NCBI RefSeq assembly: GCF_038025025.1
Contig: NW_027117342.1
Coordinates: 1,922,001 to 1,986,000, forward strand
Direction of reading: 5' to 3'
DNA from: Phyllosticta citribraziliensis
Taxonomy: Eukaryota
Length of the DNA stretch: 64,000 bases
Both the position numbers and the translations under genes were made by a program. The number at the start of each line of letters is the position of its first letter. Within the stretch, counting starts at the first letter, position 1. The notes below the pieces were generated by a model, which was not told the origin of the DNA, ran no database searches, and saw only the letters and a program-made list of their open reading frames with translations. Below are positions 9,301 through 37,972 of this stretch, piece by piece.

Positions 9301-9421
9301 CCAGGCTGGCCAGAGCCACGGCGGCGGATATGGAGCCTACGGAGCGGGCTTCGGCAGCTATGGTGGTGGCAACTACGGCGGCCGCGGAGGCGGTTGGGGC
9401 AACAGTTACGGTGGTCATTAA
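6333..9421 (+). CDS. DEF1: RNA polymerase II degradation factor Def1 (CUE domain, RGG and Q/G/Y-rich regions); introns 6634-6698 and 8354-8557
   Basis: N-terminal RGRSSARGGRGG, CUE-like IKETFPDWTDLDLLLALQESDGDL, KKTWASMF, EAVVMPGNHAVDRAAVQFGSMGL and a YGGRGGGWGNSYGGH end. Both introns keep the frame. Confidence 0.9.
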
Positions 9422-14068: not shown

Positions 14069-14504
14069 TTTCCAGTTGGTGATTGCAGGACAGAGGTTGT
14101 GCAGGAGAGAGCGCAGAGGGCCAGACCTGGGCCGGCCAGTCGTGCCCTCGCCCCCAGGGCAGGCAGCGAGTGTTTAGTGGGCCAGACATGATGCAGGGCA
14201 AAAGAAGGGTCCAGGTGGATGACGACCGAAAGCAGACAGCAGCAGCACGATGTGAGAATGGGAATGGGAGGAGACATGGAGTAGTGCCAAAGCACCGATC
14301 GCCGGGGTCAGGGCTCCACGATCTCCGCCGCCCGTTCTGCGGGCCGCACGCTCCAAGCCGCGGCCACCATCATCATCTCCAGCCCAGGTCTCCAGCTCCA
14401 GCTCAGTCCACTTCTGACGCACGCCCTGCTCCCCGTCAACTCCATTTACATTCCACCGCGCCCTCATCTTGCGAAGCATGTTCCGCACTTCATCCTGACC
14501 CGCC

Positions 14505-17703: not shown

Positions 17704-19874
17704 ATGCAGTATTCTTCTTACCCTTCACTCGGCCAATCTCACCATTCCACACCAAATGCGCGGATAACAGGCTTCGCTATCCAGGAGCTAAGAAGATGCG
17801 AAGCCTCTTGGGAACATGCCAACCTATTGTTTTACTCCGACGATCAGAAATGGGGCCTGCTTGTCGATGGGTCGCGCCCCGGATCCTGCGATGCGTCCTG
17901 CCACGGGCCTTGCCTGTACGTGGAGACGCCTGGGCATGCTGACCTTTTCTTCCACTCCGGCGAGACGTACAAGTACAAGGTTGTCATTCTGCGCTGTCTT
18001 GCATGCGAAGCAACAAACTCGGTCTGCGATGGGCAGATTCCCTGCAACGTCTGCTTCCGCAACGGAGTCGAATGCTTCCCATACTCTGAGTTGGCCGATG
18101 ACAATTTGGTGTGGTCCCGCTGGACAGCCATTCCAAATGAAAGCATCGATACGTCGAATTTCGGCCAAATCGCTGAAGAGAACGGCTATGAAGACGTCCA
18201 ACCCAATAGCTCCGAGTTCCAATTTGCGGCGGAGGCGTTTTCCGCGGGTTCTTATCCATCTTCCGCGTCCATGGAGGACCATTCGTCTTATTCGGATCAG
18301 CAACAGCCCAACATGTGCGATATCATCGACCCTTACTTCCAGCCTACTCCTATCACGCCGTCTCCAGCTGCCTGCTTGAATAGCGGGTCGTACTGCTCGC
18401 CCAGCTTTCCCCAAGCAGGAAATGTAGGCTCAGACATTACGAACATTCAGTCAAATGACGCGAGAGACGTCCAGGTGGGAGCGCATCCAAGTTCTACTTC
18501 GAATTGCACAAATACTGACCAGCATAGATAACTCCTCCTGCTACGCGGAAAAGGAAATGGGCTACACAATCAGATGAAGACAAAGAATCTCAACGAAACA
18601 AACGAGCCAGGACCGATTCACCCGTTACGCCCCAGTCCAGGTGTTTGACAAAACCTCGTACGCCAGCGCCTCGCGATAGGACAAGACCGGATCACCAGAT
18701 GACGGGAGAGTCTTCGAGTCAAGCCCAGAATCCGGCTTACTTGCCCACGCCACGGCTTGACCTAATCGCAGACTCTCCTAGTATGTTGGTGGATAATGAC
18801 CCGGAGAGTTATTTCGAAAACTATTTTCAGCAAACCACAATTTCGCCGCTTGAGAACGAGTCAATCACGAGCGATGTTGTGGCACAATCCGAACAAGTCA
18901 ATCCGTCTCCACCTACAGAGAGCAGCTTCTCTTCGAGGACCCTCAGCCCCGTCCAAGAACAACCCGCAATCAATCGCAAATCTCCGAAAAAGCCGTCCAG
19001 GAGACGCAGCAAGCCACCATCTGCCGCCACCGCAACCAACTCTACAACTACAAACCCAGCAAGTCTCGCTGCCCCTGGCCCAGGCACACGCACAGGCGGA
19101 GGCCGCTACGACGGCGCAACGTACGACGCGCCACCGCCGTCAACGTCGCTCCCGCTGCGCAACTGCAACCTCACCGCGGCCGAGATGCTGACCTATCTGC
19201 CCAAGCACGTGTGGTCGCACGCGGACATTTGCATGCGGCTCGTCGACGAGGGCTGGGGCGACGCGACCATGGCCGACTTCATCACGGTGGCGCGAGGGAA
19301 GCAAGCGCTCAAAAACAGCATCGGCAAGGCCATCACGGGCATCGGCAAGACCAAGTACCCGTATTTTCGCAGCGTGCCCGCAGAGGTGTTGGCGAGGCTG
19401 CCGCACGATTATGGCACTGTTCCAATCCCTGGATTGGACTACAGTGCTGCTGCTGCCGGAGGAAATGCGCTACCAAACTCCAAAGCGACGAGCCAGTGGT
19501 GCGTCAAGCTGCACCGCAAAGTCAACCACTTGCCGCAAGTCTCGCTCGCGACCGACGGCTTCGGTCCAGGCCGGACCAGCCTGCCCATGTGGCGGCTGGC
19601 TGAGGGCGTGAGGAACGACAAGCACCCCACGGGGCCCGACGCCCTCGACCTGACGCGCTGCGTGGACTTCGCCGTGCGGATGCGCGACGTCCACGAGTGG
19701 ATGTTCCCTGACGACTGGGAACAGGTTCTCATGTTGATTGGGGGGCCAGCGCTGGTGACGAGAGATCATTTTGATAGACCGGCGTTAGAGAGGTGGAAGG
19801 CCGTCAGGGAGGGCTTGTCGGATGAGGAGCTTTTCAGACAGAAGGGGGATAATGGGAGGGGGAAGGAGGAGTAA
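17704..19874 (+). CDS. Zn(II)2Cys6 transcription-factor-like protein with an uncharacterised C-terminal domain; intron 18475-18527
   Basis: CLACEATNSVCDGQIPCNVCFRNGVEC has C-x2-C-x6-C-x5-C-x2-C-x6-C spacing. A phase-0 intron GTGGGA...CTGAC...TAG links it in frame to RKRKW...KRAR (NLS-like) and ORF 18645-19874. The donor site is weak. Confidence 0.7.
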
Positions 19875-20635
19875 GTGGTCAGTATTCGAATGTTTTGTTG
19901 TATGTTCGTCGTGTCAAGGGGCGAAGGATGGAAGTTGAGTACCGTCACTTCACATATTCAATTCATTTCGGGGCCATATGAAAGGGGAAGGGGGTCATCA
20001 GAAGTAAGTAGTCTCTTCGAATCAAGGCGAAGTCTCCAACTCTGTGCCGTTGACTCGTTTGCAGGACCTTTGGACATCGTGTAAACCATCCCCTGGATTG
20101 GAAGACCCAACAAGCCTCTTGTTCGTAGACAAAGCGCAAATGATGTCTTCAGTTGGGTTTCACAAACCATCAGTCTTTGCTGGCAAGTCTCCCGGTCTAC
20201 TATAAAGCTCTCCCTCCTCCACGCCACCGGCTGAAGACCCCCTGAATATTCTTTCATCAAGGCTCTAAATCTCTCAGTTTCTGGGGACATGGCTGAATAT
20301 CAAGATTCTCAGTGTGTATATGCTGGATCCAATCATGCGGTTCACGGGTTTCGAACTCACGCTTTAACACTGCCCACAACATGCCAGTGTCAATTTCAAT
20401 ATGTAAAATGAGGAGCTGCCTCACGCACTTGCGGGCGTTCTTGGTGGGAAGCCCGGAAAAACAATGGATGCACGGTTCACACTTCGCTTTGGGAATATCT
20501 GAGGTTCTTGGTGGTTCTTCTTGACATCACCACCTTACAACCTACCTTTCTGAATCGTCTTCCAACCTGCACTCACCCTCACTGCCTTTCAACCCATCTC
20601 TGAGAACCTTCTTCTACACAGCACTCATCTTCACC

Positions 20636-22090
20636 ATGTCTTCCTCCCAGTCTCCCTACACCCAGTCGGAAGAAGCCTCCATGGAGCAGCAGATCACGGC
20701 GGAAAATAGCAACAATGAGACGCCCAGGGAGGCTCCCTCTACTTCGACCCAGCTGTATACGACGACGGCTCTATATGCCCCAACAAACTTTCTATATGCT
20801 CCAGCGACGGCGCTCTACGCTCCAGCTACCGCTCTCTACGCCCCTGTGACGGCTCTCTACGCTCCAGCGACTGTTCCCGGCGCTCCAAGCTCGAATGCTC
20901 CCGACGCGTCTGAAGACTTCGACTTCAGCCGTCTCAGTGAGATGCTTAGGGCTGAGATTGGGTACTCTCCCACCACCGCGAGTCCCACCGCCGTTGAGGA
21001 CGCCGCTACTGAGCAAGCTGGAGCTCAGGAAACCACAATTCTGCCCTCTGAAGTGCCGCCTCCGTCAACCGAGCCTGTTGTCATCTATCCTCAGCCAGCC
21101 TTCTCCCTGCACCAGCCCGAGCTCGGGACCACGAACACAGGCATCCAGAAGCCCTTTAGCTGTGACTTCTGCGGCAGGCGTTTCACGAGAAACACCACCA
21201 GGCGGCATCATGAGCGTGTCGCTCACGCGGACCTCCCGGATTCCCAGAACCAACCAGAGCCTGAGAACACCTCCAACCCGGCTGCAATTTCAACTCAACC
21301 AACCCTCTCCCAGCACCAGCCCGAGCTCGAGACCAACCCGACCGCCAACCCGACCGCGACACTGGACACTGAGAAGCCCTTTGGCTGCGACTTCTGTGGC
21401 AGTCGGTTCACGAGGAACACCAGCAAGCGGCGCCATGAGCGTTGTTCTCACGCGGATCTCCTGAATCTCCGGAATCGACCTCGGCCTGGGAACCCGTCCG
21501 CCGCCAATCCAGCCGCCGAAAAGCCCTACAGCTGCGATCACTGTAGTGTGCGATTCCGGGAACGACGTTCAAAGCAGCACCACGAGCGTGTTGCCCACCC
21601 AGAGGTTGAGTCTGGCGCCCAACAACCTGCCAAGGAGGAGCGCTTCAGCTGCGACTACTGCAGCAAAGATTTCAAAGCTCTTTACAACAAGAAACGACAT
21701 GAGCGAGAAAACCACCTCGCCGTGCGCTCTTTTGTGTGCTCTGTCTGCCGCAAGATCTATAACCGCTCCGATGCCTTGAAGACGCATATGAGCATGGCTC
21801 ATGGGATATCGCTTCCAAAAGGCCCGTTGCCTCGGCCATCAACTTCGACGATGAGCCCCTATCAGCCACTGCCACTGCCACTGCCGCTGCCGCAGGTGGA
21901 GCAGGACCAGCAGACTCAGCAGCAAGAGGAGCAAGACCAGCAAGAGGACCAGGAAGACGCGTCTCTGGAGCAGCGTGGCGAGGAGGATCTGGAGAATCCC
22001 CGCAAGAGGAGCCGCGACGGACAAGAGGGCTCCGGCGACGAGCTGTCGAAACGGCTCCGTCTCCAGTCACGCCGTTCGAGTTCGCCGTAG
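20636..22090 (+). CDS. C2H2 zinc-finger protein ZF-A (5 fingers)
   Basis: Five C-x2-C-x12-H-x4-H fingers (CDFC, CDFC, CDHC, CDYC, CSVC) and a C-terminal bipartite NLS (RKRSR...SKRLRL); intronless, 484 aa. Confidence 0.92.
   Translation: MSSSQSPYTQSEEASMEQQITAENSNNETPREAPSTSTQLYTTTALYAPTNFLYAPATALYAPATALYAPVTALYAPATVPGAPSSNAPDASEDFDFSRLSEMLRAEIGYSPTTASPTAVEDAATEQAGAQETTILPSEVPPPSTEPVVIYPQPAFSLHQPELGTTNTGIQKPFSCDFCGRRFTRNTTRRHHERVAHADLPDSQNQPEPENTSNPAAISTQPTLSQHQPELETNPTANPTATLDTEKPFGCDFCGSRFTRNTSKRRHERCSHADLLNLRNRPRPGNPSAANPAAEKPYSCDHCSVRFRERRSKQHHERVAHPEVESGAQQPAKEERFSCDYCSKDFKALYNKKRHERENHLAVRSFVCSVCRKIYNRSDALKTHMSMAHGISLPKGPLPRPSTSTMSPYQPLPLPLPLPQVEQDQQTQQQEEQDQQEDQEDASLEQRGEEDLENPRKRSRDGQEGSGDELSKRLRLQSRRSSSP
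20765..20872 (+). repeat. 21-bp coding minisatellite, (TALYAP[A/T/V]) x ~5
   Basis: Repeated acggctctctacgctccagcg-like units inside ZF-A. Confidence 0.85.
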
Positions 22091-22844
22091 CTGAATGGAC
22101 TGGTGTTCCCTGGATTGGATGGAAGGCGGGAGGTGTTTCAATTGCTTTGCTTCTTTCCACTCAATGACACCCCCCTAGTTTCGTGGTTGCTCTGGACGAA
22201 GGTGGAGGAATGAACTTCTTACGTGGAGCTTGTTGGTCCTAGATATACCACTTATGAAACCAATTTCTCTTCATCTTGCGCATGCCGTTGAAATTGCGCT
22301 GTCTAACAGTGGTTTCTACTGTCGTTGACGTCCCAGGGGCCACTTGCAGGCTCACTTCTTAATTGACAGCTTACCCGTTGTCTAGGCAAATCTCCAACCA
22401 AATCTTCTTGAATTGAAATTGGCAAAGACTCTATCTTCGCTCTTGTTCAGGGGAGGGCGGACAGCTCAGACTTGGTGGGAGAAGTTGTGGTACACACGGT
22501 TGCGAGGTTTCGCGACCTCGGGGTTTGAATGCTCCCAGAAACTTGCTTCTGAGTATGTTGAATGTTTCCTGGGTCGAGCGATGAAAAGTATGCGGTCAAC
22601 GGGTTTCGAACCCATACACCAAAACAACACCGTTCAGCCGAACAGTGTTAATCCGTAAGTCAAAATCACTCTTTCCAGCTCCGTTCGCTTAACCCCAATT
22701 CACTTCGGACCTGGACTAACTGCATGCTCATGGTCCGTCTGTTTACCTTTCGCGCCACGCCATTGTCGCCCTTAACGCCAACCTCACCACGCAAGACATC
22801 GAAACGCTGCAATCGCGCGAATATCTCACACAAATCAACACGTT

Positions 22845-24311
22845 ATGGCTCCAAAGCGATGCTTGGATGATCAGGAGCTTTCTTGCGCTGAGCCCAAGCG
22901 CTCCAAGCTCACAGAGGACTTCACGACCTCGCATGATCCGCCATCTTCGTCGCCTCCTGTTAGTTGCTCAGATATCCTAATTGAACCTCAGAATATTGAC
23001 ATTGTTCAGGAATCCGTCGACGTCAACAACCCGTCAGAGAATCGCTCTGAATCGCTTGATGGCGATACCATCACCACCACTCTTTCCACAAGCGGCGGCG
23101 AAATCAACCATGAGTTTCTCGACTGGCTCAATGGCCCCGAAAGTCAAGCGATGATCGACAACTTCATGATCCAGGAGGGTCTCAGCGCAACGCCCTTCCA
23201 GTTACCTGACTTTGAGCCCACCGATGTTAACGCTCCTTTGGAGCATTCGACGGAGGAGCATGCTGTTCACGTTCACGACAGCTTCACTCCCACAAGCGGC
23301 ACAATCGACCAAGATTCTTCTGAGGAGACCAACAACGCCGACCATGAAGCATTCCTTCGCGTGCTCCAAAGTGTGGAGAGTCCCCATGTGGATTTCACTT
23401 TGATTGAGGCCGACATGTTTAAGTACGTGACGGAAGGGGGCGATTTCAACAACAGCCTGACGGCGGCGGGTGAGCTCATGGAAGCGGTGGCACCAATTGC
23501 AGACACATCCCCTCTGCCAATCAACGACATTGACACTGAAGTTGCCAGCGGATTCACTTTCAACTCTGAGCCTGTTGAAGAGCAGGGCCCCTCGATCGAC
23601 GATGTGATGGGAATCATAGTTCAATCTATGGAGCCACTTCGATATGTCGAGCCGTCAACAGTCGCAGAGGCGCGCAACTTCTCCATGGCTCCTCAAAGCC
23701 CTCAAGGTCTTTTTGAGCCTGACTATGAGGCCATGGCCGCCTTCGAGGCCGATATGCAGCTCGGCGACGAACAGACTCAGCCAGCCGACGGACTTGACGT
23801 CCTACTCGATGGCCAACACGATGGCCCGCCTCAGCCTCTCCAGACTTCCGCGCTCCAGAACTACGATTCCCGCGACATGGCTCCTCCGATCCGCAAATGG
23901 CGCACTCAAACTCCCGCGACGATCGAAAAACGAACCGATTCTTTGTACATGCCTGAGCACGAAGATGCCGACGAAGCCCCCAAGAAAGTCGTCGTCGTCG
24001 AAGAAGATGAGAAGCCGTTCCGCTGCGAGACCTGCAACAAGCGCTTCAAGCTCAAGAGGTCGCTGCAGCGTCATGACAGGGTGGAGCACACAGATCGCAC
24101 GCTGGAATGCCCCCACTGCGACAAGACCTTCAAGCGCAACGATGCGCGCATTGCTCACGCACGCAAGCTGCATGGTGTCGAGTTGCCTCACCATCCGATC
24201 CATCGTGGTGGCAAGAACGCTCAGATGAGCGGTTCTACGACACCTCCAGGAATGCCCGATGAGCATAACGGCGGCGACCATGGTCAGCAGGGCGGAGAGG
24301 CTCAGAAATAA
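22845..24311 (+). CDS. C2H2 zinc-finger protein ZF-B (2 fingers)
   Basis: MAPKR...EPKRSKL NLS, long acidic region, fingers CETC..HDRVEH and CPHC..HARKLH, then GVELPH. Confidence 0.92.
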   Translation: MAPKRCLDDQELSCAEPKRSKLTEDFTTSHDPPSSSPPVSCSDILIEPQNIDIVQESVDVNNPSENRSESLDGDTITTTLSTSGGEINHEFLDWLNGPESQAMIDNFMIQEGLSATPFQLPDFEPTDVNAPLEHSTEEHAVHVHDSFTPTSGTIDQDSSEETNNADHEAFLRVLQSVESPHVDFTLIEADMFKYVTEGGDFNNSLTAAGELMEAVAPIADTSPLPINDIDTEVASGFTFNSEPVEEQGPSIDDVMGIIVQSMEPLRYVEPSTVAEARNFSMAPQSPQGLFEPDYEAMAAFEADMQLGDEQTQPADGLDVLLDGQHDGPPQPLQTSALQNYDSRDMAPPIRKWRTQTPATIEKRTDSLYMPEHEDADEAPKKVVVVEEDEKPFRCETCNKRFKLKRSLQRHDRVEHTDRTLECPHCDKTFKRNDARIAHARKLHGVELPHHPIHRGGKNAQMSGSTTPPGMPDEHNGGDHGQQGGEAQK

Positions 24312-24904
24312 ACCAGGGAGGTCATCCATCGACGGTACAAGGGAATGATGGGCATATCCGCGCACAGCACTTGGTTGGGAAGAATATGTCGGCATGGTTT
24401 GAAGCCGACTCAGGACAGAACGCCCCCTCAAAACTGGGAGTCATAGGTAGTCCGCCAATTGTTGGCGGTCGTCTTTGCTCTTCTTGGATGAGGTACTTGT
24501 TACGTTTGATTCCTTTTCGGAGGGCTGGAAGCGGAGAAGTCGGAGCAGTGGGAGTTCGCGAAGTTTAGACAGACATTCGGAGCTGGCGTTCTTTCTGCCA
24601 GCGTCTCGGAAACAGTATACAGCACTTCGGTGTTAATTCTGACAATGCAAAGTCCCCTAAAAAATAATTTTACCTCAGTGGGCGGCCCGGATTAATCGTG
24701 GGTGCCGCAAATGTCTCTGTTGACGTTGGCGGTGCCGACATTTGTTTACTCACTCCATCACCGCACCCTCAACCTCAAGTTTCCACCTCGCATCCTCCAA
24801 CACACATCGTCCAACCCACGTCTTCCAGCCTTTTCGTTCAATCATCCAATCCGACTATACACCCCCTACAAGTACATCTCCAAGTACATCTCAACTCCAG
24901 AATC

Positions 24905-26470
24905 ATGGCTCTCAAGAGATCCGCCGAAATGGAACTTCCCCATGGCCGCCCCAGCAAGCAGCCCCGGTGCGAAGAGAACGGCACGCCGTCTCGACGATTC
25001 AGGTTTTCCCCGCCCGTCATCGCTTCTTCCAACTCGCAGAGTCCCGTCGCAGATGTTGGAAGTCTTCGAGAAGTCTCCTTAGCGGACGGAATCGCCATGT
25101 TCGAAGAAGCAGACCCCTCAAAGCTTGCTGCACGTCCTGGTTTTGTGCTCTCCAAATGTCTCGGAGGAAACCTGTTGCCCGGACCCTCAACTCTGGAAGC
25201 CGGTGAGATGGACTTCTTCAATGCTTTCGTCCAATCGAGCAAGGAAAGGATGGAAAACTTCAGGAAAGAAGGCAGTACCACGCGAGTCCACGAGGACAGG
25301 TCTCCCGTGGCAGACGTCGACGACCAAGAGCACCGGTCGGCCGCTGAGTCTGTTGTCGTGACACGGATGAACCAGGGCGAAAAGGTGTTTCTCAATTTTG
25401 TCGCTTGTGGGGAAGAACTTGGACTGACGAATGTCGAACAGGAAACCTTGAATCGTCCTGAAAATCAACGCCGTGAACTGGAGCCAGAGCCGGAGCCAGA
25501 GGTGGAGCTTGCAAGTTCCAATTGGCGGCTGGAATACCTTGCTGAGCTTGTGTCTGGAGCTCCCATCGCCCAGCCTATCGAAGACAACCTTCCGGAGCAG
25601 CAAGATGAGCCGACCACCACCGTATTCGACGGTCCTGCTCAGGAACTGGAAGCTTCAACCGCCTCCGACGCACCTCTCCTCCCGATGAGCGCCCAGACCT
25701 CCCAGCAGCGAATTCAGCTCCCGGAGTCACAGACCCAACCCATCCCCGCACCTCTCATCGTTCCTGCTAAACAAGCGGGAGTTTATCCTATCCAGGACGC
25801 CTGCGCCTCCCAGACAAATGCCGAGATCGCTCAGCAAGAGGCTCAGCCTTCTCTGACGACAGCCAACGACACGGCACTTCATGCGGAGACATCCCGAGGC
25901 CCGGCAAGTCGAGAATACAGTGTGGACACGGAAAAATCGTTCATGTGCGACATATGCGGGGATGGCTTCACTCGCAAATGCGCTCTGAAACGACACAAAG
26001 ACAACATTCATAGCGACAAACGTCCTTTCTCGTGTTCAAACTGCGCCCAGAGCTTCATCCGCAACGACCAGCTGTTGGAACACAGCCGTTGGTATCATGG
26101 AGTCGAGCTTCCGCACTTGCCGAGAGTCTCTCGAACTGCCACTGCGGAGCCCGCCGCATCTTACGCTATTGAGGACGGGGAGAATGAGCGGGACCTACAG
26201 TACCTGCAGCACCTGCAATATCGGCAGCATCCACGGCACCAGGAGAACCAGCAGCAGCAGTACCAGGAGAACCAGCAGCAGCAGTACCTGCCGCATGCCC
26301 AGCCACATGTCCCGCACCTCAATCCGCTGTATAGCCAGAGCCACACGGCGCCATACAGGCATTACTACTCGCCTTACCAGCAGTATGTTTCGCCTTACCA
26401 ACAGCCTCCAGCAGCAGAACAGAGGGCGCCGCTGGAAGAGAATGAGGAGCAAAGGCTTCGTAGGGCATGA
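24905..26470 (+). CDS. C2H2 zinc-finger protein ZF-C (2 fingers)
   Basis: ATG 24905 gives MALKRSAE...PSKQPR, matching paralogue N-termini; fingers CDIC..HKDNIH and CSNC..HSRWYH, then GVELPH; Q/Y-rich tail. Confidence 0.9.
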   Translation: MALKRSAEMELPHGRPSKQPRCEENGTPSRRFRFSPPVIASSNSQSPVADVGSLREVSLADGIAMFEEADPSKLAARPGFVLSKCLGGNLLPGPSTLEAGEMDFFNAFVQSSKERMENFRKEGSTTRVHEDRSPVADVDDQEHRSAAESVVVTRMNQGEKVFLNFVACGEELGLTNVEQETLNRPENQRRELEPEPEPEVELASSNWRLEYLAELVSGAPIAQPIEDNLPEQQDEPTTTVFDGPAQELEASTASDAPLLPMSAQTSQQRIQLPESQTQPIPAPLIVPAKQAGVYPIQDACASQTNAEIAQQEAQPSLTTANDTALHAETSRGPASREYSVDTEKSFMCDICGDGFTRKCALKRHKDNIHSDKRPFSCSNCAQSFIRNDQLLEHSRWYHGVELPHLPRVSRTATAEPAASYAIEDGENERDLQYLQHLQYRQHPRHQENQQQQYQENQQQQYLPHAQPHVPHLNPLYSQSHTAPYRHYYSPYQQYVSPYQQPPAAEQRAPLEENEEQRLRRA

Positions 26471-27047
26471 TCGCTAGATGGATAAGCACCGCCTTCGCTA
26501 TGGGAGGGGACATGTGCAATGGACAGTTAAAGATTCACAGTTTTGCTTCAACAATGTTTCTCCATTAAAAAAGCCTCTTTTTCCCTCTTGAGCGCAGGCT
26601 GAAGCGCGTGCAATTAGTTCTTGAATACAATGTTAACGTCAGTATAAATGAGAAGTCCTCTTTTATTTTTCACACTTCACTGAGGGGGAAGGCCAAAGAT
26701 GGTGGTGGTTTTAGACAGGAATTTTGAGCGTTCTTTTCAGACGAAGCACAGCCTAGAAGAGCACGATGGCCACCTTTGACGCGATGAGCGCAAATATTGA
26801 ATATACGATCGAGCATCATTGAAGCTGAGATATTCGTGGCCAACGGGCGACCGGATTAATTGGGCGCACAGTCCGTGTCAATTTTGAAGTGTTAACGACT
26901 GTGGTTGTTTACCTCGTCCTATCACAACATCCCCGATCTCAACCTCAACTCTCCAACCCGACACCTCTGCCTTCTCATCGACCGCTTTTCAAACCTTTCC
27001 AATTCACTCGCATATTACGTTCACCGTATATTCAATCCTCTGCAGCA

Positions 27048-28177
27048 ATGGCTCCCAAGAGATCCGCCGAGTCGAAGCTCGCCGCTGGTCCCTCGACCAA
27101 GCGCCCCAAAGTCGCCAACCAGGTTCCGTCCTCGCCAGATTGTAAGTCACCTCAGCCCAACTTCAGACGAGCTTCTCGAGAACAAAAAACTTACCAAAAA
27201 TAGCGGACAATCTCGAGGACTACGACTGGTTGAAGATCAACGCTTACCTCAATGGCGACAGCGAGGTCAGGCGTGAGGTTGATGATGCGGAGCAGTTGGA
27301 GCAACGCCTCCACAGTAAAAAACCTGAGACCTTTGACTTCCCTGTGCCCCGTTGACTCCAGGAGCAGGAGGACCAGAGGTACATGATGGAGACCAATCCG
27401 TTCTGCCAAGAGGGAGACGACGAGGAGCTCGCTGCGCCCAGCGGTTCTGCAGCTTGGGGTCTTCCGGACGGCACTCCGGATCTCGATGCGCTGAATGCTG
27501 AATTCGCCGCTCATCCAATCGAGCATTTCTTCGAAGAGAATGCGCAGACGATTGCGCTCAGGGAAGTCTGTGGACATCCTCAGAATATTCTCCCAGTTGA
27601 AGCAAACTCCGCTCGCTGGATGGATGTTCTACCTCCCAGGCCACTGGAAATCTCTCAGGAGCACTCTGGGACACCGAGCAGCGCCTCTCACTCCCAAAGC
27701 ATCCAAATGCACCTCCAGCAGCCCCAGCCGATTACTCCAACATTGACCCGCTCGCCTTGCGCTTCGGGAATGCCAACAAGCCAGACCGGCCAGAGCAACA
27801 ACCAGAATCTGAGCCAAAGCGTCTTCGAGCATGCCATCCAGACCTCCAATGCTCTCGCGGAAGTGGCAGCCAGCCAAAGCACCGACGAAACCGCCAGTCA
27901 ATCTGCCGACCAACAAGACAACACGGCCGACAACCAGAGCGCTGATCTGCCCTTCGCTTGCCGCCACTGCGACAAGAGGTTCAAGCTGGAAAGGTCCAGA
28001 AGACGCCACATAAGGGACATACACGAGAGACAGCCACACGAGCGACGGTCCTTCGCATGCCCACTTTGCACCAGAACGTACACTCGTAACGACGCCCTGC
28101 TGGCCCACGGGCGCAAAGAGCACCGTATTGAGCTGCCGCATCAGCCTCGACTTCCCCGCAATACACAAGGCCAGTAG
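27048..28177 (+). CDS. C2H2 zinc-finger protein ZF-D (2 fingers); intron 27142-27203; in-frame TGA at 27353-27355 (possible pseudogene)
   Basis: MAPKRSAE...TKRPKV start. The GTAAGT...CTTAC...TAG intron puts exon 2 in frame with ORF 27383-28177 (CRHC..HIRDIH, CPLC..HGRKEH, RIELPH), but one TGA intervenes. Confidence 0.78.
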
Positions 28178-28555
28178 TGAAAGAGGGAATGGTCTGTGAT
28201 CTTCTCTTTCGACGGCGTTTCTCTCAGTTCCGTGGGATTCCAGCAACCCAATTGCACGGGAAGGGATAGTTTTGGGAAAGGTTTCTGTTACGGGAAGACA
28301 AAAGAGTCGGTTGGCTTGCTTGTATATTTTGAGTGGAAGATTCGGGCACCTTTCAGGCATAACAAGTTTCTTGGGTCATGAGGTCTTAATGTCAAGCGTA
28401 GCATGGCGTGCGTTGGTCGGAAGTGAATGATCAGAGCCTACCTCCGCATAATGTCCAAGGTGATTGCAAGATTCTGCAGTGAAAAAGCCTGCCAGTGAAT
28501 CTGACCATTCTCTCCCTCCGCAACAACTGCCAATCCTCACACTGACACTCCATCC

Positions 28556-29086
28556 ATGGCTTCCAAAAAGCCTCGCAAATCAGAGTCGCTGTACGTCCCC
28601 GGTCTACAAGCCCCGGCTGAGGGTGAGGGAGACACTACTTCCACAGCGGCTACTTTTGGCGGCTTCGTGACTCAGTACAACGAAGATGGCAAGGGCACGC
28701 TGAAAGCTCCCAGCGGATCGAAGAATCAACAGCGTCAAGAGCAGTATCCCAACGAGCAGAAGTTCGAGTACCCGGAGCCGACCACGTGGGAAGAATCATA
28801 CGACTACAAGTATCCTGGCTACAAGCCCCCTCCGGCGCCCCCTCGCCCTGAGTTTGAAGAGCAGCCAGAGTCCGACGAGTCGATTTACAGCCCAGACACG
28901 ATGCTGGCAAAGTTCAAGCACGGTGGCCCTCAGAAACCCAAGAAATCCATCGACCCGAGTCTTATAGACCCGCGCCTTCTCGAAATGTCGGACCAGCCCA
29001 CCGGAGCGAGCTCTCAGAGCTTCCAGAGCGGCAAATCGGGCGACAAGCAAAATGCAGACAGAGCCGGCAGCAACAACGCTGGTTAA
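28556..29086 (+). CDS. Small low-complexity protein within the ZF array, no fingers (gene E)
   Basis: 176-aa ORF with coding-like codon use, start context TCCATGG, basic N-terminus MASKKPRK and IDPSLIDPRLL. Confidence 0.65.
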   Translation: MASKKPRKSESLYVPGLQAPAEGEGDTTSTAATFGGFVTQYNEDGKGTLKAPSGSKNQQRQEQYPNEQKFEYPEPTTWEESYDYKYPGYKPPPAPPRPEFEEQPESDESIYSPDTMLAKFKHGGPQKPKKSIDPSLIDPRLLEMSDQPTGASSQSFQSGKSGDKQNADRAGSNNAG

Positions 29087-30211
29087 AGCGCGGACAATGC
29101 GAGGACCTGCGATTAGGGCTGTGGGCTCCAGGAGACCCGACAGGCCAGGCAACAAAGAAAAAGCACGACAAGAGTGCCTGACGAAAACGACTTTGGTCGG
29201 CAGATTGGAACAATGACAAAAGGCGATCCTCGGCAGTCTCCTTTGTCGCAACAGCAGATGTTCGGGTCTTCTGAGCGAAGTGTTTTGTTGGATCGCTCAG
29301 AGGGCCATGCACGATCGAATCTGTAAGCCTCTGGGCGAGCAGCGAAGTTGGATTCAAATTTTTGGTGTTCATCGAGCAGTAGCTGGCAATCCCACCGATG
29401 TGAGAAGGTGAAACTACTTTCCAGCTTGCTTGGTATGGTGAATACTCTCGAACTGTGTGTTGTTTTCCTCGTGTCAAAATCTGCTTTCGAGCCCTTGGAA
29501 TCCGCTCCATCAATTGCTTGCAAATTTCAAAGTTCTTGGAGGGCTTGCCATTTTTGCGAGACTGGAGAGCTCCATGCTTGCCTAGTATGAGAGTCGGGAT
29601 AGCCCAAATGTTCAACGCACTTCCATTTCACGAGAATAAGCTGGCTTTCCGTGCCCGGGCACGGATGCCTGAAAAGCCAAGCGCAACACCATACATGATG
29701 CTGAGAATGTTGGGGTTTGTGGTGTCCAGATTGACTCGGAAGCCCATTCATCAGGGCTTGACACAAAGAAAGTCGCCTACACGGCAACGATTTACGCGCA
29801 AAAGCTTCACCATACCACCTTCATAAAACCAAGAACCCGCCGAGGTCCGATCAACTGAAGTGCTATTTCCGCATTGGGAGATCTTGTAACCTTTCCTCTC
29901 TGGTGCTCTCCCAAGTTCTTTCAAGTGTATACATGACCAATGCTCCCCCTTGTCTTCTTCCCTAGCTATCTATTCACAAAAAGTTTTGCCTTGTCGCGTC
30001 CCAGCCTGGGCCGTCCTGATGTCTTTGTTCGTCACCCGGATTCGAACATTGGCGACATGAATTCCGTCAGCTTTTGCATGTTTGTTTCGCACATAAAGTG
30101 TCCAGGGTGATCATCCTCCCACGCCAAGAACCAACAATCACTTCTCTTCACCAACACCTTGCTCTGCCTCTACACTCAGACTCCACTCATCACTCGGACA
30201 CAATTTTCAAA

Positions 30212-31600
30212 ATGGCCCCGAAGAGAACGCGTGACGAAGAGACGGAAAGTTCCAATAAGCGCTCAAGGGCACCGCACGATGGGTTCAGTGAGCAGCAGCT
30301 GAATAGGCTCCACAACACGTGGGTGCAAATGGCCGATCAATATGCTCCAGTTGCGCCTGTTCACTTGAATCCTGCGACGGCACCTGCTTTCACCATTCCC
30401 GCACGACCCAACCAAGGACCTGTCGAGCAAGAACACGACGACGGCATTATTTACTCTAATGGAATTGCGTATCGAGCCGCGGGCGCTGCCAACCGCCCCA
30501 ATCAGGTTTCAACTCGTCGCTACAGAAGCGCAGACCAAGCTCCACGAGCCCGTCGTGAACCGCAGGTAGACCTCTCTGGACTCAGACGCGACTATCCTCC
30601 CGGTCCAATGCAAACCCCAGATCCTCCTGATTTTGCGTTGCGACATGCGGTTCAGCAGGGTCTTCGTCTTCATTCCAACCCGGTGGTAAGTCCCATTGAA
30701 AGCGCACATCAAGGTGAATGAGCTGCTGACCGTCTGGAACAGAACAGTTACCCCGGCTTTGGAGAGGAACACGACGCGCCGCCAATGGCCCATCATCCCG
30801 ACCAGATGGCGCATCATAACAACGGCAGTCACCCAACTTGGGCTGCGAATATCCCCGTGCGGACCGGACGTGTTGGCCTTGGAGGCGGGACCACACATCC
30901 ACCTGTCGCCAACCCTCCCCTTGAGAGCACATATCCCGATCATGGAAGCGTATTTGGAGCGCCTCTACCCTATCGTGGTCGGCAGAACACAAATCCTGGC
31001 CAAGGAGCTGCGCGCGCACCGGATACCTTCTTTCCCCAGCTTTACACAAATTCTGAGCAATGGGGAGCAGCCGCGCCAGCCGCCTACGGAGCCCAGCAGC
31101 AGTATACGTATCCTGGGCTCAGAGGTGAACAAGCTCGCCAATTCGCCGATGGTTTCAGGCCAGCTCAACAGCCAGAAGTGGAAGAAGACCTGTTCGATTT
31201 CGGACTTGGTGGTATGCAGCTGCCCCACGATGAAGAGCGAGACAACGGCAGAAACCAGAACCCTTACCGGAGTCCTTACCCTCCCATTGGGCGTCAGGGG
31301 GCGCAAGGTGCCAGGAACAACGCGATCGCCCAGCCCGTCGCCGCCCCTGGTCCTGACGACCCCGAGTACTACCCTTACAAGTGTGATCACTGCGATCTTA
31401 GGTTCCACCTCCCACGCAGCAAGATTCGCCACCAGAATTCGGAGCACACGCGACGAGTCACTCACCCTTGTCCGCATTGTGGAAAACTCTTCTATCGAAC
31501 CGATACTCTGGCGGATCATGTCAACTCTCAGCATCTGGGTCTCGGCCGTCGCCTTTCAAAGGGCACTGGCATTGCAAGAGGTGGACGGCGGAAGAAGTAA
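30212..31600 (+). CDS. C2H2 zinc-finger protein ZF-F (2 fingers); intron 30686-30742
   Basis: MAPKRTRD...NKRSR start; phase-0 GTAAGT...CTGAC...CAG intron in frame with ORF 30785-31600; fingers CDHC..HQNSEH and CPHC..HVNSQH. Confidence 0.9.
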
Positions 31601-31783
31601 GCCATTTGGCTTCCTCGGCGTGGTAAGCATCGCCATTTCTCTCCTTAGACAAGCAACCATGGCTGATTAGTGTTTTTCAGAGTCTAGACGAATACCCAAA
31701 AGATTGCGTTCATTTCGGTCTTTCAGCAAATTTTCTGTCAGCTGCCCGCCGCGAAAAGATCGAAATATGAAGGAATAAGAGAT

Positions 31784-32032
31784 CGATAACCATACCAATA
31801 TCAGACTTCTATCGAAATGTGATTGACTGCTCGGGTCTGTGACTTAGTACTCACCCGTCTCTTCCGATTTAGCATAACCACGTTCTCCTTCCTACAAGCA
31901 CGCACAGACCGATAACCATACCAATATCAGACTTTTATCAAAATATGATTGACTGCTCGGGTCTGTGACTTAGTACTCACCTGTCTCTTCCGATTTGGCA
32001 TAACCACGTTCACCTTCCTACAAGCACGCACA
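31784..32032. repeat. Tandem direct duplication, period 126 bp, 2 copies
   Basis: 31784-31906 versus 31910-32032 (cgataaccataccaatatcagac...caagcacgcaca), with 6 substitutions in 123 bp by eye. Confidence 0.95.
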
Positions 32033-32234
32033 CTCAACCACCGTGATGATGTCGTGATACTGGTCAAAAGGAAGCTGGCGGCGCACGATCTGACCAACTC
32101 GTGGACTTCACGCCGGCCATGGACTACGACGCCGTCCAGTGTCTCTCATTTAAAACCATGCTGCGATCTCTGACAGGACTCTGACCTCAACCTCACCGTC
32201 CTCCTCCGCTCCCAACTCCATCTCAGCCACCGGC

Positions 32235-33296
32235 ATGCCTCGCAAGAGGTCTTCAGACCAGCGGCCCAGAGACCGTCGCCCCTCAGGGGGATTGCTGGAA
32301 AACCCCGAGTTTTCCATGCAAAATCTGACGAACCATGGTCAAGATAACTTCTTGACCGCCACCGCCGCCACCACCGCAGCCGAGGCCCCCTCAGGTCTCC
32401 AGGACAATCCGTTGCCTGTGGTTCCAAACTGGGAGGAGGAGGCTCAGGCCTACGGCAACTTCCAGCAAAGTTGGCAGCCCGCACCGGCAGGGTACACGCC
32501 GGCCACTCATTACGGCGAGCCGGCTCCGCAAGTTCAGGCCACTCCATACAACCACCCGGCTCAGTACGCCGAGTACACTTCGTTTGGCCAGCTCACTCAA
32601 GACCCTCCCATTTCGTTTGGCCAGCCCACTCAGTACAACGTGCCCTACAACGCGCCCTACAACGCGCCCTCCAACGCGCCCTCTGCGTACCTTCACGCCC
32701 AGCTCGTTCCCCTCTACGACCCACCTCCATACAACACGCCCACTCCGTACAACATGGCCACTTCACATGCCCAGCCCGATCCGAACCTTCAGGCAACTGC
32801 TAACCTCCAGCTCACTCCGTCTGGTCAGCCTAATCCATACATCCAGCAGGAGGGTGCAAACAGTCATGGTCATGAGCACGGTCAGGTCGAGCATGATCCA
32901 AGCCAGGATGCGAGTGCGAATCTGCAGCACGGTCAGAACGACGTTCAACAGGGAGTGAACGAAGAAGGCGGAGGAAACCGTCAGAGACGTCGCAGACGTG
33001 CCAGAGCTGCCAGAGCTGCCACCAGAGGTGCCACCAGAGGTGCCAGAGGTTCCAGAGCTGCCGGAGGTGCCAGAGGCGCCGGAGCTGCCAGCGGTGCCAG
33101 CGGTGCCAGAGATGTCATTCCATGTCCTCATTGCGACAAGACGTTTGAGCATAAGACGTCCCAGGTCCGCCACGCCAAGAGCGCGCACAACAACAATCCG
33201 AACCGATCTGTGTGCCGCATTTGCGGTAAAACGTTCGGCCGGAACGATACGATGATCAGGCACTTGAGAGACAAGCACGATGGTGCGCTTCCTTAG
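32235..33296 (+). CDS. C2H2 zinc-finger protein ZF-G (2 fingers)
   Basis: MPRKRSS start, Q/P/Y-rich region, RQRRRRRAR, fingers CPHC..HAKSAH and CRIC..HLRDKH at the extreme C-terminus. Confidence 0.9.
   Translation: MPRKRSSDQRPRDRRPSGGLLENPEFSMQNLTNHGQDNFLTATAATTAAEAPSGLQDNPLPVVPNWEEEAQAYGNFQQSWQPAPAGYTPATHYGEPAPQVQATPYNHPAQYAEYTSFGQLTQDPPISFGQPTQYNVPYNAPYNAPSNAPSAYLHAQLVPLYDPPPYNTPTPYNMATSHAQPDPNLQATANLQLTPSGQPNPYIQQEGANSHGHEHGQVEHDPSQDASANLQHGQNDVQQGVNEEGGGNRQRRRRRARAARAATRGATRGARGSRAAGGARGAGAASGASGARDVIPCPHCDKTFEHKTSQVRHAKSAHNNNPNRSVCRICGKTFGRNDTMIRHLRDKHDGALP
33000..33110 (+). repeat. 9/12-bp coding minisatellite (gccagag[c/g]t) in ZF-G
   Basis: About 11-12 units encoding ARAARAATRGATRGARGSRAAGGARGAGAASGASGAR. 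Confidence 0.85.
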
Positions 33297-33882
33297 GCAG
33301 CATGTTTGCGCCGCCGGTCCTCGAGCGTCACGCGAGCGGACGGGGAATCTGGGTGCGCATGGCGCTCGCGCACCACCCCGACACAACAACGACAATACCG
33401 GGCCCACACTCTACACTTACACACTCTTGCAATTTCTCCACCTCTTTTTCCATTGAACGGCCCGCTCTACACCTGAGCACCACACCCTCGCTTCCTTCTA
33501 CCCCACGACCGAACCTTGCTCTTTCGCCCTAGCAGGCACCTTTTGCTTTGAGACACCCGAACTCTTTTGACCTTGAGGCGTTATTGGCGCAGGTGAGCAT
33601 CAACCTCGAGGAGCAGCCCCAGCTTCAAAGAGACTCTTCCACCGAGACGGCATCGAACTTCAGACTGATCAGCTTTCAGACACGGCACACAATTTGGCAG
33701 AGTAGCTCTGCGGCACATCGGATAAAACAAAAAACAACAACAAAAATCAGGAACAGTCACCTCGACAGGTCTAGTAGCCTTGCGACATCCAAAAACATAC
33801 AAAACAGCAAAAAAATCCAAAAACATACAAAACACCAAAAAAAAAGTCAGTCAAAGTCACCTTCGGAGGCTCACCTGAAGTC

Positions 33883-35025
33883 ATGGCTGCGAAGAGAAAG
33901 GGCCCGACCGGCCGCCCTCGTGGTCGCCCGCGCAAACATCCCAAGGTTGAGTCCACGGCCGAGCCTAAGGTTGAGCCTCAGAAGTTGATCATCAAGCTCA
34001 ACATGAAAGCCAAGATGAAAGAGGACGGAGCAAGCTCGTCGGCACCGGCTCCGCCCGTCACCTCTCCTCCGAGAGATATTCCCAGCGATTTTGCGATTCA
34101 TGGAGGCGTGGAGGAGCCCGCTCCTGTTCAGATCGAGGGAAATTCTTTCGCCGGTCCTTTCCTGGGTTTCGACAACGCACACAACAAGCATGGCGACGGT
34201 TCCTTGAAAGCTCTGAGCCATACCGTCAATGCGAACCAGGAGGGCTTCCTCAACGACTGTACCAACACTTTCCCCGAATCGATCACGACCGAAACACTGC
34301 CCACTTACCACTACTTTCACTCTTTTGGTCACGCCGACGTCCCTGCTTCGACGGCTTACGACAGCGAGGCGACGATTTCGGCTCAGCCCACCCCGGAATA
34401 TGACAGCCGGAAGAACAACGCTGGTAAGTTCACCGCCAAGACGGAATGCAAAAGCCAGGCCACAATCTCGACCCATACAATGTCCGAAAGCATCTACGGC
34501 AACGACAACTCCAGCATTGGCTGCGACAAGGCGGAATGCGACAGCAAGGCGAGATTCCCGGTCAAGGAAAAAGCAGAAGACGGTGAAGGCAAGGACAATG
34601 GCGACAAAGTCGTCTTGACAGCCGGCTTCCACGATATCCAGCATGCCGCCCAGACTGGCTTCTACGACTGGCTTGACCCTGCTTTTCGCGATCCGTATCC
34701 CTGCAACTTCTGCGTGGCGACTTTCGACTTCGAGGACTCCAAAAAGCGCCACGAGCTCGTCTATCACACTGGCGGCTACTACCAGTGCCCAGCATGTGCG
34801 ATGCCTTTCCTTCATTTCTGGAGCCTGCACGTTCACGGCGTCCAAGAGCATCGAGTAGAGCTGCCCCTGCAGGCTCCGGTTCAGCGGGTGCAGCACAGCC
34901 CTGAGATGCAGCAGTACCAGGCTACCCAGTACGTGGAGGCGGAACACATTGAGGAAGGCTTGCGCAGGAATTATGAGGCCAACATCATCGCCCTCCATCG
35001 ACAGAGAGCTGAATGGCATCGCTAG
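33883..35025 (+). CDS. AT-hook plus degenerate C2H2 zinc-finger protein ZF-H
   Basis: KRKGPTGRPRGRPRKH (AT-hook core RGRP), fingers CNFC..HELVYH and CPAC..HGVQEH, then RVELP. Confidence 0.85.
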   Translation: MAAKRKGPTGRPRGRPRKHPKVESTAEPKVEPQKLIIKLNMKAKMKEDGASSSAPAPPVTSPPRDIPSDFAIHGGVEEPAPVQIEGNSFAGPFLGFDNAHNKHGDGSLKALSHTVNANQEGFLNDCTNTFPESITTETLPTYHYFHSFGHADVPASTAYDSEATISAQPTPEYDSRKNNAGKFTAKTECKSQATISTHTMSESIYGNDNSSIGCDKAECDSKARFPVKEKAEDGEGKDNGDKVVLTAGFHDIQHAAQTGFYDWLDPAFRDPYPCNFCVATFDFEDSKKRHELVYHTGGYYQCPACAMPFLHFWSLHVHGVQEHRVELPLQAPVQRVQHSPEMQQYQATQYVEAEHIEEGLRRNYEANIIALHRQRAEWHR

Positions 35026-37972
35026 AGAGCCTGAGGTCGTATCCAACCGACGTACATGGTCGCTGCTCGTTGCATGCTTGGTCGTTGGAGTAGCTCAGGT
35101 CGTTGGGCACACATGGCGATGGAACGGGCCGGGCCGAAGGCGTGCGCGGCTAGCTTCTTGGAGTAACTCGCCTTGGTTCTGGAAAAAGATTGCGCCACCC
35201 CTTGGAAACTCCACGATGCGACTGCGGCGGTGTCCAACCCTTCTCGCCTTTACACTTGGTTTTTTGCGATTAGATTCGGTTTTCCCTTGCTCTTTCTGGA
35301 CGGTTCGATTGATTTCTTGCGACTGGGACATGCTTTGCTTCGGACTCTACACTCATCGGGTCCATCAGGTTTTCGGGTAATGGCTGGCTTGCGGTAGAAA
35401 ATGGGTTGACAAAAATGGATAGAAAACTTGAAAAACTTTCTCTGGCCGGGCGCGTTTGGTGGTGCAATTAATGCTGGCCAAGGCTCCGCAATATGACGAT
35501 CATCAAGTCGTCAATTTGCCCCATGCCTCGCAGCGGTTTTGCGGCACCTTGTTTGTTTTTGACTGACATTTAGCGATACAATTGGCGATCGATGTTGACG
35601 ATTACGCCCTGGGATGCTTCGACGGTGGCTCGCTGGCGCTGCAAGGCTGTGGCACGTATACCGCAAATGCTCGGCTCCGACTCCAGACCCACTTAAGAGT
35701 CGTATACGTTTACTCATCTTGCTCCGCTGTCGCGGCTCCAGGTACAAAGACACGCAATCCGTTGAAAGGAAGCCGTTGAAACAGGTTGCGCCCTTTGCCT
35801 ATGCAGCCACGTCGAAGCGTGACGACTTCCGGGGGGACCATCAACGATGCTGACAAGAACCATGTGAGTTGAAACACGGCACAGTGGACCGGTTGAGGAG
35901 CTCGGAGCAGCTGGCACCGGTGAGAATAACGATGGCTCCAAGCAGGTCCGACAACATCGAAACGAGCATGACCGGCCGGCCCCATTCCGACTTTCTGGAA
36001 ACAAAGTGACACCGCTCGAACTTTGCGGGGTTTTGCCTTTGCCTCCCCGTGTCTCCCGGACATACCATAGTTCGCATATCCGCCTCCGAGTCTGCTTGAT
36101 GCAGGGCTGGTGAGAGCTCCTCGGACGTAGGAAGCTTACTGTGCGACAACCGTCTTGCTGCCCGGAGATGAGCGAAGCCTTGGGGTTATGGGAAAGATAT
36201 TGTGGGGATGGCTGTGTGTATCGTGTGTATCGCGCATGAGGAAAATTCGGTGTCCCCAACATCTCTGCTTGCTCAATACTCATCGGACGCGCCTGAGCAC
36301 AAATTCTTCGATACGTCATCTCTGTACTCCGGTGGTAGAGATCCAAGGCTCCGTGCCTGTTTGGGCCTGGCCAAGCCTTTGGCCCATCCTCGGCGCCCTG
36401 GTATCGTTAATCGCTGAGGCTGTCGACTCGCCCAGGCTGGCTTGTGAAGAAAGATCGGCGGGCGCACGACTTGGAAAGACGGCTTTCAGCTGCCCTTGAA
36501 GATCGTTGTGTGACCTTATAGAACTAGATGCCCTTGCCATGTGTGAGCATCTGCAACTCCCCATGCAAAGGTCTGGTTTACAAACCAGGAGGTACCGGGC
36601 ACAGTTGCCCTCTAGCGTGCTGGATACCAAAGTTGCCGCACGCTGCATGGTGACTTGAGCTTGGACTCTCAGCCGACGGCAAACCCTGCATGCTCCGGGG
36701 AAAAGCATCGTTTGTGACGAGGATGGCCAATTATGTGCGTATGTCTGAGGCGAAGCTGCGTTCAAGATTACAGACCCACTGGTACAGGGGGGTCGTCAGA
36801 TTGTATGTGGGCTGGTATTTTGGCCCGGTTTGTATCCCTCCGAAGTTACAGTTAGGGGATCACGAAGCATTTCTGCGTTCATTCATTGTCATTTTTGCCC
36901 CCACGGAGCGTTTTCCGATATTGGGACTCACCGCTAGATTGAACAAGCATTCGAGTTTGGAACTCATCAGCCTTTTTGACCAAAAGGACCTAGGGCCCCG
37001 GTCATGCGTTGTGAGACCAAAGACGGAATCGGTACAAGCGCGCGGGAAGGCGTCTAGATGGACCGTCAAAGCTGGGCACAACAATCTTTCGGGGTTGGCA
37101 GTAGCATACTTGACGCCTTTCAGGTTGAGCCACGCTATCTGTGAGGCACTGCAAGCAGGTCTCCCGAGGCTCGCCCACAGTGCCACATGGATGATTGACG
37201 GCCCGTTGCTCATGAGGAACCGATGTCGTAACACCAAGAAGGCTGCACTGCTCTCACAGTCTCCTGAGGAAACGCCACAATTCGGCTGATCTTCTCACTG
37301 CTGGCTCCTCGTTCCGCCTGTCGTTGCCCGGCATAAGTGACATGTCGAAGGTTTTCGGTCCGCTCCTTGCAGGAGATTGTGAAGCTGGTGCCTCTGGGGC
37401 AAAGACAGGCGCCTGTCGCGTCTGGTAAGGGGTGTTGAATTCGAGGACTGCGAAGCGCTTGCCGCCACGACGACCAAAGATCCCTGCCGTGGGCCAGAGC
37501 GATCATCATCGGACGGAGGTCAAGCGAGAGCTCAGACAACCCTGAGGATGTGATTACTCTCAATTTCAAAAATCCATGATACATGTGCCAAAGCAAGAAT
37601 GTGGTGCTTCCGAGGAGACAGATGATAGACCGGGAAGCCAGTGTTTCCGTTCAATTGGGACTCGGAGGTAAGCGCCCCGCACGAAATTTGTGTCGAATCA
37701 AGATGCGGACTGCTGAGTAATATTGTGTTCAGATTGCTCATGATAGGCCACCGACCAATACGCGGCAAAGAATGACCTCTTTTCTGCCAGGATTACAGGG
37801 CTGCAGCCTCATCCTGTTTTCTTCACGGGTGATTCTCCGCATTCGAATCAATCCTGCCGTTCAGCAAGCGACTCTCAAGGTAATCAGACTTTCCCAAGGA
37901 TGCTTCTCACATGACTTGGACGCGGGTCGGTGCAGTGTCCCCCAAAGACTTGCTTTGTTTCTCGGGTCCAAC

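Follow-up and report, generated by a model that had tools for sequence, protein, structure and literature searches.

In animals, the C2H2 zinc-finger genes of the KRAB-ZNF and ZAD-ZNF clusters are tandem duplicates which lie side by side in one orientation, are restricted to particular lineages, and undergo loss of genes as well as shifts in finger number. Fungal regulators of the C2H2 type are usually regarded as conserved genes that occur singly and dispersed; Adr1, Mig1/CreA and Msn2/4, for example, are single, widely conserved and dispersed in fungi, and have two fingers of H-x3-H spacing. Here we examine a locus of the citrus-associated fungus Phyllosticta citribraziliensis (Dothideomycetes), within a 64,000-nucleotide stretch of the 2.47-Mb contig NW_027117342.1 (positions 1,922,001 to 1,986,000; hereafter the window, from whose first letter all coordinates are counted), in which seven adjacent C2H2 genes (ZF-A, ZF-B, ZF-C, ZF-D, ZF-F, ZF-G and ZF-H) and one fingerless gene (E) are arrayed on the forward (+) strand. 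We consider it likely that this array is a tandem paralogous family of nuclear transcription factors which arose by repeated local duplication in the Phyllosticta lineage and which is subject to slow birth-and-death.

The array has in common with the animal clusters the features listed above, namely tandem and co-oriented C2H2 genes, restriction to a lineage, gene loss and altered finger number, but differs from them in other respects. The animal proteins bear a KRAB or ZAD domain and long finger arrays joined by short, conserved TGEKP linkers, change faster at their DNA-contact residues, and are encoded by hundreds of genes. Here there are seven genes, six with two fingers and ZF-A with five; none of the nine genes of the locus matches KRAB (PF01352) or ZAD (PF07776) in Pfam at E <= 0.1; and the fingers are conserved, as judged from two orthologue pairs at the protein level. 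With Adr1, Mig1/CreA and Msn2/4 the array shares a finger pair as the sole recognisable domain, long disordered regulatory regions and the expectation of short, G-rich sites. It differs from them in comprising seven linked paralogues with H-x4-H spacing, a tail ending in E-L-P behind the fingers and a MAPKR start, and in that no homologue was detected outside Phyllosticta for the members ZF-A, ZF-B and ZF-C, matches to fish ZNF and unnamed proteins aside. Surveys of Basidiomycota describe tandem duplication of C2H2 genes, with Schizophyllum commune, which has 10 tandem genes, as one example (PMC12295980); in the accessible part of that source this is a survey count from another phylum, and no array is described. 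Our full-text searches of the literature brought up no ascomycete report of such a C2H2 array.

Nine consecutive sets of open reading frames (ORFs) occupy the + strand at 17704-35025, with a start-to-start spacing of 1.5-2.9 kb and gaps of 378-1125 bp between genes. The first of these is G1, which we treat separately below; the seven finger genes and E together span 14.4 kb, all on the + strand. A search of all six frames of the window for the pattern C-x2-C-x12-H-x3-5-H yielded 17 strict matches, all of them on the + strand at 21161-34851 and confined to the seven adjacent genes, with five fingers in ZF-A and two in each of the others. Every one of the 17 has the spacing C-x2-C-x12-H-x4-H with all Cys and His ligands intact. 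A profile of the seven finger pairs, compared with the six-frame translation of the window, found these seven loci only, the rest being noise. Five of the seven genes score above the Pfam gathering cutoff for zf-C2H2 (PF00096, 25.2 bits), with 39.4 bits for ZF-A, 32.8 for ZF-B, 25.6 for ZF-C, 31.7 for ZF-D and 33.9 for ZF-G; ZF-F lies just under it at 24.1 bits, and ZF-H is without any match despite the intact ligand spacing of its fingers. The finger-pair profile matches solved DNA-binding fingers from ZFP568, CTCF, PRDM9, WT1 and Zif268, the best single stretches of which score 27-43 bits, and on the evidence of sequence the fingers of the array are of the classical DNA-binding type.

The tail H-[GR]-[VI]-[ES]-L-P follows the last finger in five of the seven genes (ZF-A, ZF-B, ZF-C, ZF-D and ZF-H), while ZF-G ends in HDGALP and ZF-F has no such tail. 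A MAPKR-like basic start is present in every family member except ZF-A: MAPKR itself in ZF-B, ZF-D and ZF-F, MALKR in ZF-C, MAAKR in ZF-H, MPRKR in ZF-G and MASKK in E. The MAPKR starts of ZF-D and ZF-F lie in upstream exons which a plain ORF list misses. The original prediction had described this layout closely. It had named nine consecutive + strand genes, one finger spacing throughout the seven ZF genes, the tail in most members and basic starts in the finger-pair genes (borne out for ZF-B, ZF-C, ZF-D, ZF-F, ZF-G and ZF-H), and for ZF-A five fingers with a C-terminal nuclear localisation signal, where we confirm the five fingers and find a basic stretch at the C-terminus.

We found that BLAST similarity among the paralogues is restricted to the fingers, at 30-49% identity, in keeping with the earlier observation that the proteins barely align elsewhere. 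Within the finger pairs the columns C, C, F, R-H, H, C, C, H, H and L are invariant, R-H standing at the end of the first helix, and the second helix reads R-[NST]-D in six of the seven (majority residues R-N-D). Among non-finger protein regions, six of 43 pairs reach z >= 4 against shuffled sequences, and the best is E with ZF-H (local similarity score 88, where shuffles averaged 36.9 and none of 100 reached it; z 7.6; BLAST E 1.3e-6). There is also similarity at the DNA level: the first 60 coding nucleotides (nt) of ZF-C, ZF-D and ZF-H are 62-72% identical (ZF-C 72% with ZF-D and 62% with ZF-H), the finger-coding starts of ZF-B, ZF-D and ZF-G match, and short upstream matches pair ZF-C with ZF-D and ZF-A with ZF-B. 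These comparisons support the view that the seven finger genes and E form a local paralogue family and not a chance neighbourhood. The 25-nt match upstream of ZF-A and ZF-B was considered as a possible tRNA and ruled out by a tRNA scan, which returned 0 genes.

Predicted DNA contacts, read with the canonical model of finger-DNA recognition, are partly shared. Position 6 of the helix is Arg in the first finger of the pair in all seven genes, and the second finger has Arg at position -1 and Asp at position 2 in six of seven; because of these residues, we infer that the seven proteins should share a central GG in a site of roughly 6 bp, with flanks that differ. ZF-B and ZF-D have all eight predicted contact residues in common and should bind the same site, while the predicted contacts vary among ZF-A, ZF-C, ZF-F, ZF-G and ZF-H.

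A typical member would be built of three parts: at the N-terminus a short basic segment, which probably serves nuclear import; then a disordered region, acidic or rich in Q/P and fast-evolving, in which regulation probably resides; and at the C-terminus a pair of classical DNA-binding fingers. Since the paralogues are no more than 30-49% identical, and in the fingers only, the duplications would be old and would predate the split between P. citribraziliensis and P. citrichinensis. Slow birth-and-death would then have left E without its fingers, ZF-H with degenerate ones, ZF-D with an internal stop and ZF-A with an altered finger number.

The last of these changes can be followed between species. 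In ZF-A (deposited model P0098, which starts at 20942) the first four fingers are separated by 17-53 residues and the last two by 7, and fingers 1 and 2 are encoded by the two units of its internal direct repeat. In P. citrichinensis the orthologue, P0124, has four fingers, and in place of two units it has one that is chimeric, with a front like copy 1 and a back like copy 2. This chimeric structure, set against the two 225-nt units, is the outcome to be expected of a change in finger number by unequal recombination. ZF-A also contains a 21-nt coding repeat at 20791-20871.

Other members show signs of decay to differing extents. After removal of intron 1 the frame of ZF-D is open except for one in-frame TGA at 27353-27355, which would not be removed by any intron that combines a good donor site with a length divisible by three. 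For E, a scan of the six-frame translation with the finger-pair profile revealed no finger remnant downstream; its codon score is 0.246 bits per codon. Codon usage favours the proposed frame in 10 of 11 ORF pieces, the exception being exon 2 of ZF-F, the gene with the weakest coding signal of the set, where frame +1 beats the reading frame. In ZF-H the + frame scores 0.222 bits per codon, as against 0.068 for an equally long antisense ORF. The open frames of the members range from 176 to 521 codons. Two further repeats were seen around ZF-G: a 9-nt coding repeat of about 12.6 copies at 32993-33111, encoding an Arg/Ala/Gly-rich run directly before the fingers, and a 126-nt unit present twice in tandem (94% identical) at 31780-32032, in the gap between ZF-F and ZF-G and about 200 nt upstream of the ZF-G start.

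We searched three members (ZF-A, ZF-B and ZF-C) individually for relatives in other genomes. In an index of 5.8 billion proteins, ZF-B gave three matches among 4991 candidates, from P. citribraziliensis, P. citrichinensis and one fish ZNF. The first is J3D65DRAFT_695236, identical to ZF-B bar 17 residues which are cut as an intron in the deposited model; the P. citrichinensis protein is 80% identical. ZF-A gave seven matches among 3695 candidates: itself, P. citrichinensis at 76% identity, and five others (three named fish ZNFs and two unnamed proteins) which align on C2H2 fingers only. Outside P. citribraziliensis, named homologues of ZF-A and ZF-B thus come from P. citrichinensis only. An exhaustive HMMER search of 1.84 billion representatives with the non-finger part of ZF-C (residues 1-340) returned two proteins, P0130 (74% identical) and P0131 (38%). 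P0131 has 304 amino acids, a MAPKR start, a finger pair in which Tyr replaces the first His of the second finger, and a KLPHMPRR tail, and its closest array member is ZF-C; a metagenome scan found no relative of it. When longer proteins in the 5.8-billion index were searched with the finger-pair profile, the matches listed were animal or unnamed poly-finger proteins and ZF-A, which is uninformative on fungal relatives, and the ESM Atlas gave generic fungal C2H2 clusters only for ZF-B. In the metagenome scan ZF-B hit one locus only (L001), with unrelated poly-finger genes. L001 is a 149-kb contig of 33% GC with at least seven consecutive + strand coding blocks for poly-finger C2H2 proteins at 8630-15938; most of its fingers have H-x4-H spacing, yet they are unrelated to the fungal family. 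In these searches, none of the three members covered yielded a homologue beyond the two sister species.

The accessible part of PMC9073689 describes P. citribraziliensis and P. citrichinensis as mutual closest relatives; the identifiers of ZF-A, ZF-B and the corresponding P. citrichinensis proteins were not found in those of its supplementary files that were available. Comparing these orthologues at the protein level, for two pairs (ZF-A and ZF-B), we found that the fingers are 92% identical between the species (66/72 residues in ZF-B and 104/113 in ZF-A) and the non-finger N-terminal regions 77% (297/385, ZF-B) and 69% (118/170, ZF-A). This indicates that the DNA-binding part is under stronger constraint than the remainder of the protein.

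Table 1. Features of the array and its surroundings, in window coordinates.
Feature	Position	Strand	Description or basis
FAD-binding monooxygenase	12644-14068	-	Pfam
MFS transporter gene	14699-16459		Upstream of G1; Pfam
G1	17704-19874	+	705 amino acids, Zn2Cys6-like N-terminus; ORFs 17704-18531 and 18699-19874 joined by intron
ZF-A	20636-22090	+	Five fingers, long linkers, C-terminal basic stretch
ZF-A internal direct repeat	21147-21499	+	Two units at a 225-nt interval, with 78% identity across 128 nt
ZF-B	22845-24311	+	MAPKR start, acidic non-finger region, two fingers, HGVELP tail
ZF-C	24905-26470	+	MALKR start, two fingers, HGVELP tail, Q-rich C-terminus
ZF-D	27048-28177	+	MAPKR exon, two fingers, HRIELP tail; predicted canonical intron 27142-27203
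E	28556-29086	+	Fingerless, 176 amino acids, MASKK start; similarity to non-finger part of ZF-H
ZF-F	30212-31600	+	MAPKR exon, two fingers, no ELP tail, 443 amino acids; predicted 57-nt intron 30686-30742
ZF-G	32235-33296	+	MPRKR start, short tandem repeats in a P/Q/Y-rich region, two fingers, HDGALP end
Spliced antisense transcript over ZF-G and ZF-H	32209-36400	-	X1 contigs, two CT..AC joints
ZF-H	33883-35025	+	MAAKR start, R/G/P-rich basic stretch, two degenerate fingers, HRVELP tail
WD40 gene	at 40608		Next recognisable gene downstream of array

Transcript data came from one sequencing run, X1, of a kind guessed as RNA, which contains 7% of the sampled words. Its contigs derive from spliced RNA, because short segments with GT..AG ends are missing from them. 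They cover G1 fully with its introns removed, parts of ZF-A (21143-21559 and 21631-22111) and the region of ZF-G and ZF-H. No contig falls on 26460-30443 (ZF-D, E and the start of ZF-F), and ZF-B, ZF-C and ZF-F have only scraps, so that for these genes the run is uninformative about expression. Over ZF-G and ZF-H the contigs have joints at 32922-32978 and 33658-33874 with CT..AC ends, that is, GT..AG on the minus strand, although the former is weak, with 29 letters on its shorter side; at least part of the X1 signal there is therefore antisense. The antisense contig, which has high depth, continues past 36400, probably to about 39.5 kb, and the minus-strand transcript may be a long non-coding or antisense RNA.

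G1 differs from its neighbours in kind. An X1 contig skips the intron at 18475-18527 (53 nt, GT..AG) and so unites the two ORF frames. The X1 contig covering G1 is missing two further segments, 20004-20064 (61 nt, GT..AG) and 20183-20312 (130 nt, GC..AG), both of which lie after the G1 stop and ahead of the ZF-A start; these may belong to the 3' untranslated region of G1 or the 5' untranslated region of ZF-A. The original prediction had called this gene Zn2Cys6 and placed it within the regulator array. The six-Cys spacing C-x2-C-x6-C-x5-C-x2-C-x6-C is indeed present in the translation of 17704-18531, but the score against Zn_clus (PF00172) is 18.4 bits (E 0.0023), under the gathering cutoff of 21 bits, and the motif lacks the basic residues usual between its first cysteines. 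G1 has no BLAST similarity to the finger genes; by this comparison it is unrelated to their family, and it is not counted as a member. Its C-terminal 250 residues, encoded within 18699-19874, look globular but match no Pfam family; the ESM Atlas gave no usable match for this part, and single-sequence AlphaFold2 on the residues encoded by 19125-19871 was unusable (mean pLDDT 40.7). G1 adjoins the MFS transporter and FAD monooxygenase genes and may belong with them. At the flanks, the MFS gene expected upstream is present, but the methyltransferase expected downstream was not found, none of the 15 ORFs in the 5.5-kb stretch at 35-40.6 kb matching Pfam. Elsewhere in the window, the stretch 4001-8000 is GC-rich (61-63%, as against about 54%), and two long overlapping ORFs at 6446-8491 (minus strand) and 7151-9421 (+ strand) match no Pfam family.

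Four other explanations of the array were weighed. It is unlikely that the array is mostly a graveyard, left by an old burst of duplication, in which most copies drift neutrally and one or two genes at most still work. Such a reading would accommodate the fingerless E, the absent Pfam match of ZF-H and sub-threshold score of ZF-F, the in-frame TGA of ZF-D, the lack of a clear codon signal in exon 2 of ZF-F, and non-finger regions just 69-77% identical between species described in the accessible part of PMC9073689 as closest relatives. However, every member keeps its open frame, the codon score is of coding type and in the right frame in all but one of the pieces, E and ZF-H included, the ligands of all 17 fingers are intact, and the fingers of ZF-A and ZF-B are better conserved between species than other parts of these proteins, a sign of purifying selection. 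The conservation of the fingers also bears on the proposal, raised in the original prediction, that this is a fungal counterpart of the KRAB/ZAD-ZNF clusters, a set of diversifying repressors which track transposons or other selfish DNA in an arms race. We regard this as very unlikely, even though the paralogues are tandem, co-oriented and lineage-restricted, ZF-A differs in finger number between species, and contact residues differ among five members (ZF-A, ZF-C, ZF-F, ZF-G and ZF-H). Two fingers read about 6 bp, insufficient to single out a transposon family; Pfam detects no KRAB, ZAD or shared effector domain; in the two orthologue pairs the fingers are the most conserved part of the proteins between species; ZF-B and ZF-D have identical predicted contacts; and the genes number just seven. 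The window is even in base composition and contains no AT-rich stretch, though transposons themselves were not searched for. Of the analogy, the tandem arrangement alone holds, and a role in genome defence is not supported.

The possibility that the finger genes regulate a metabolic cluster including the upstream FAD monooxygenase, the MFS transporter and the Zn2Cys6-like G1 draws on the adjacency of these genes to the array, and seems to us highly improbable. No polyketide synthase, non-ribosomal peptide synthetase or terpene synthase was matched by Pfam among 22 large flanking ORFs, seven regulators for a single small cluster would be without precedent, and such a role fits G1 better than the finger genes. 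Least probable of all, in our judgement, is that unrelated C2H2 genes lie together here by chance or for functional reasons, each of them having an old ascomycete orthologue that our searches missed. Searches of the word index do overlook distant relatives, poly-finger proteins of animals swamped the profile search, and individual searches covered three members. Unrelated genes, however, would not be expected to have in common such idiosyncratic traits as H-x4-H spacing in 17 of 17 fingers, the ELP tail, the MAPKR start and the R-x-D helix, nor DNA-level similarity at and upstream of the start codons, nor non-finger similarity above shuffles in six of 43 pairs; and the exhaustive search with the N-terminal region of ZF-C found two proteins only.

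Our preferred reading, a paralogous family formed by local duplication, retains one part of what was originally proposed: the idea of a lineage-specific birth-and-death array is partly supported, in that its members form a family, E, ZF-H, ZF-D and ZF-A bear signs of turnover, and no homologue was detected beyond the sister pair. Several points nevertheless weigh against it. The paralogy comparisons were confined to genes of the window, and P0131 may be a dispersed paralogue. The word-index searches are limited to proteins of similar length which share 5-mers with the query, the protein libraries may not include the proteomes of other Phyllosticta species, and the narrow range may in part be a failure of detection, given fast-diverging disordered regions and the little signal in two short fingers. 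Some members may be dead, in view of the stop in ZF-D, the weak codon signal of ZF-F and the failure of ZF-H against Pfam. All strand-informative joints over ZF-G and ZF-H are antisense. Promoter 8-mers gave no common site: the best word occurred in four of eight upstream regions, which was reached by 25 of 200 shuffles. DNA binding, nuclear location and the GG core are themselves predictions. A bolder version holds that the array is a young module limited to the P. citribraziliensis/P. citrichinensis lineage, whose members bind variants of the GG core and compete or cooperate at shared targets, with the spliced antisense RNA over the distal members controlling the array; we think this quite unlikely.

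The array thus appears to be a real but modest family expansion; it opens no new class of system, and an animal-style arms race is unsupported. The accessible part of PMC9073689 pairs P. citribraziliensis with P. citrichinensis in its discussion of how lifestyle differences on citrus may be studied. If the bolder version were true, a young module could underlie the ways in which citrus Phyllosticta species, though closely related, differ in lifestyle or development, and it would offer a rare case of a transcription-factor family evolving rapidly in an ascomycete. As it stands, a compact family of seven genes with a narrow detectable range offers a small, tractable case in which to follow the birth, divergence and decay of a transcription-factor family in a filamentous fungus.

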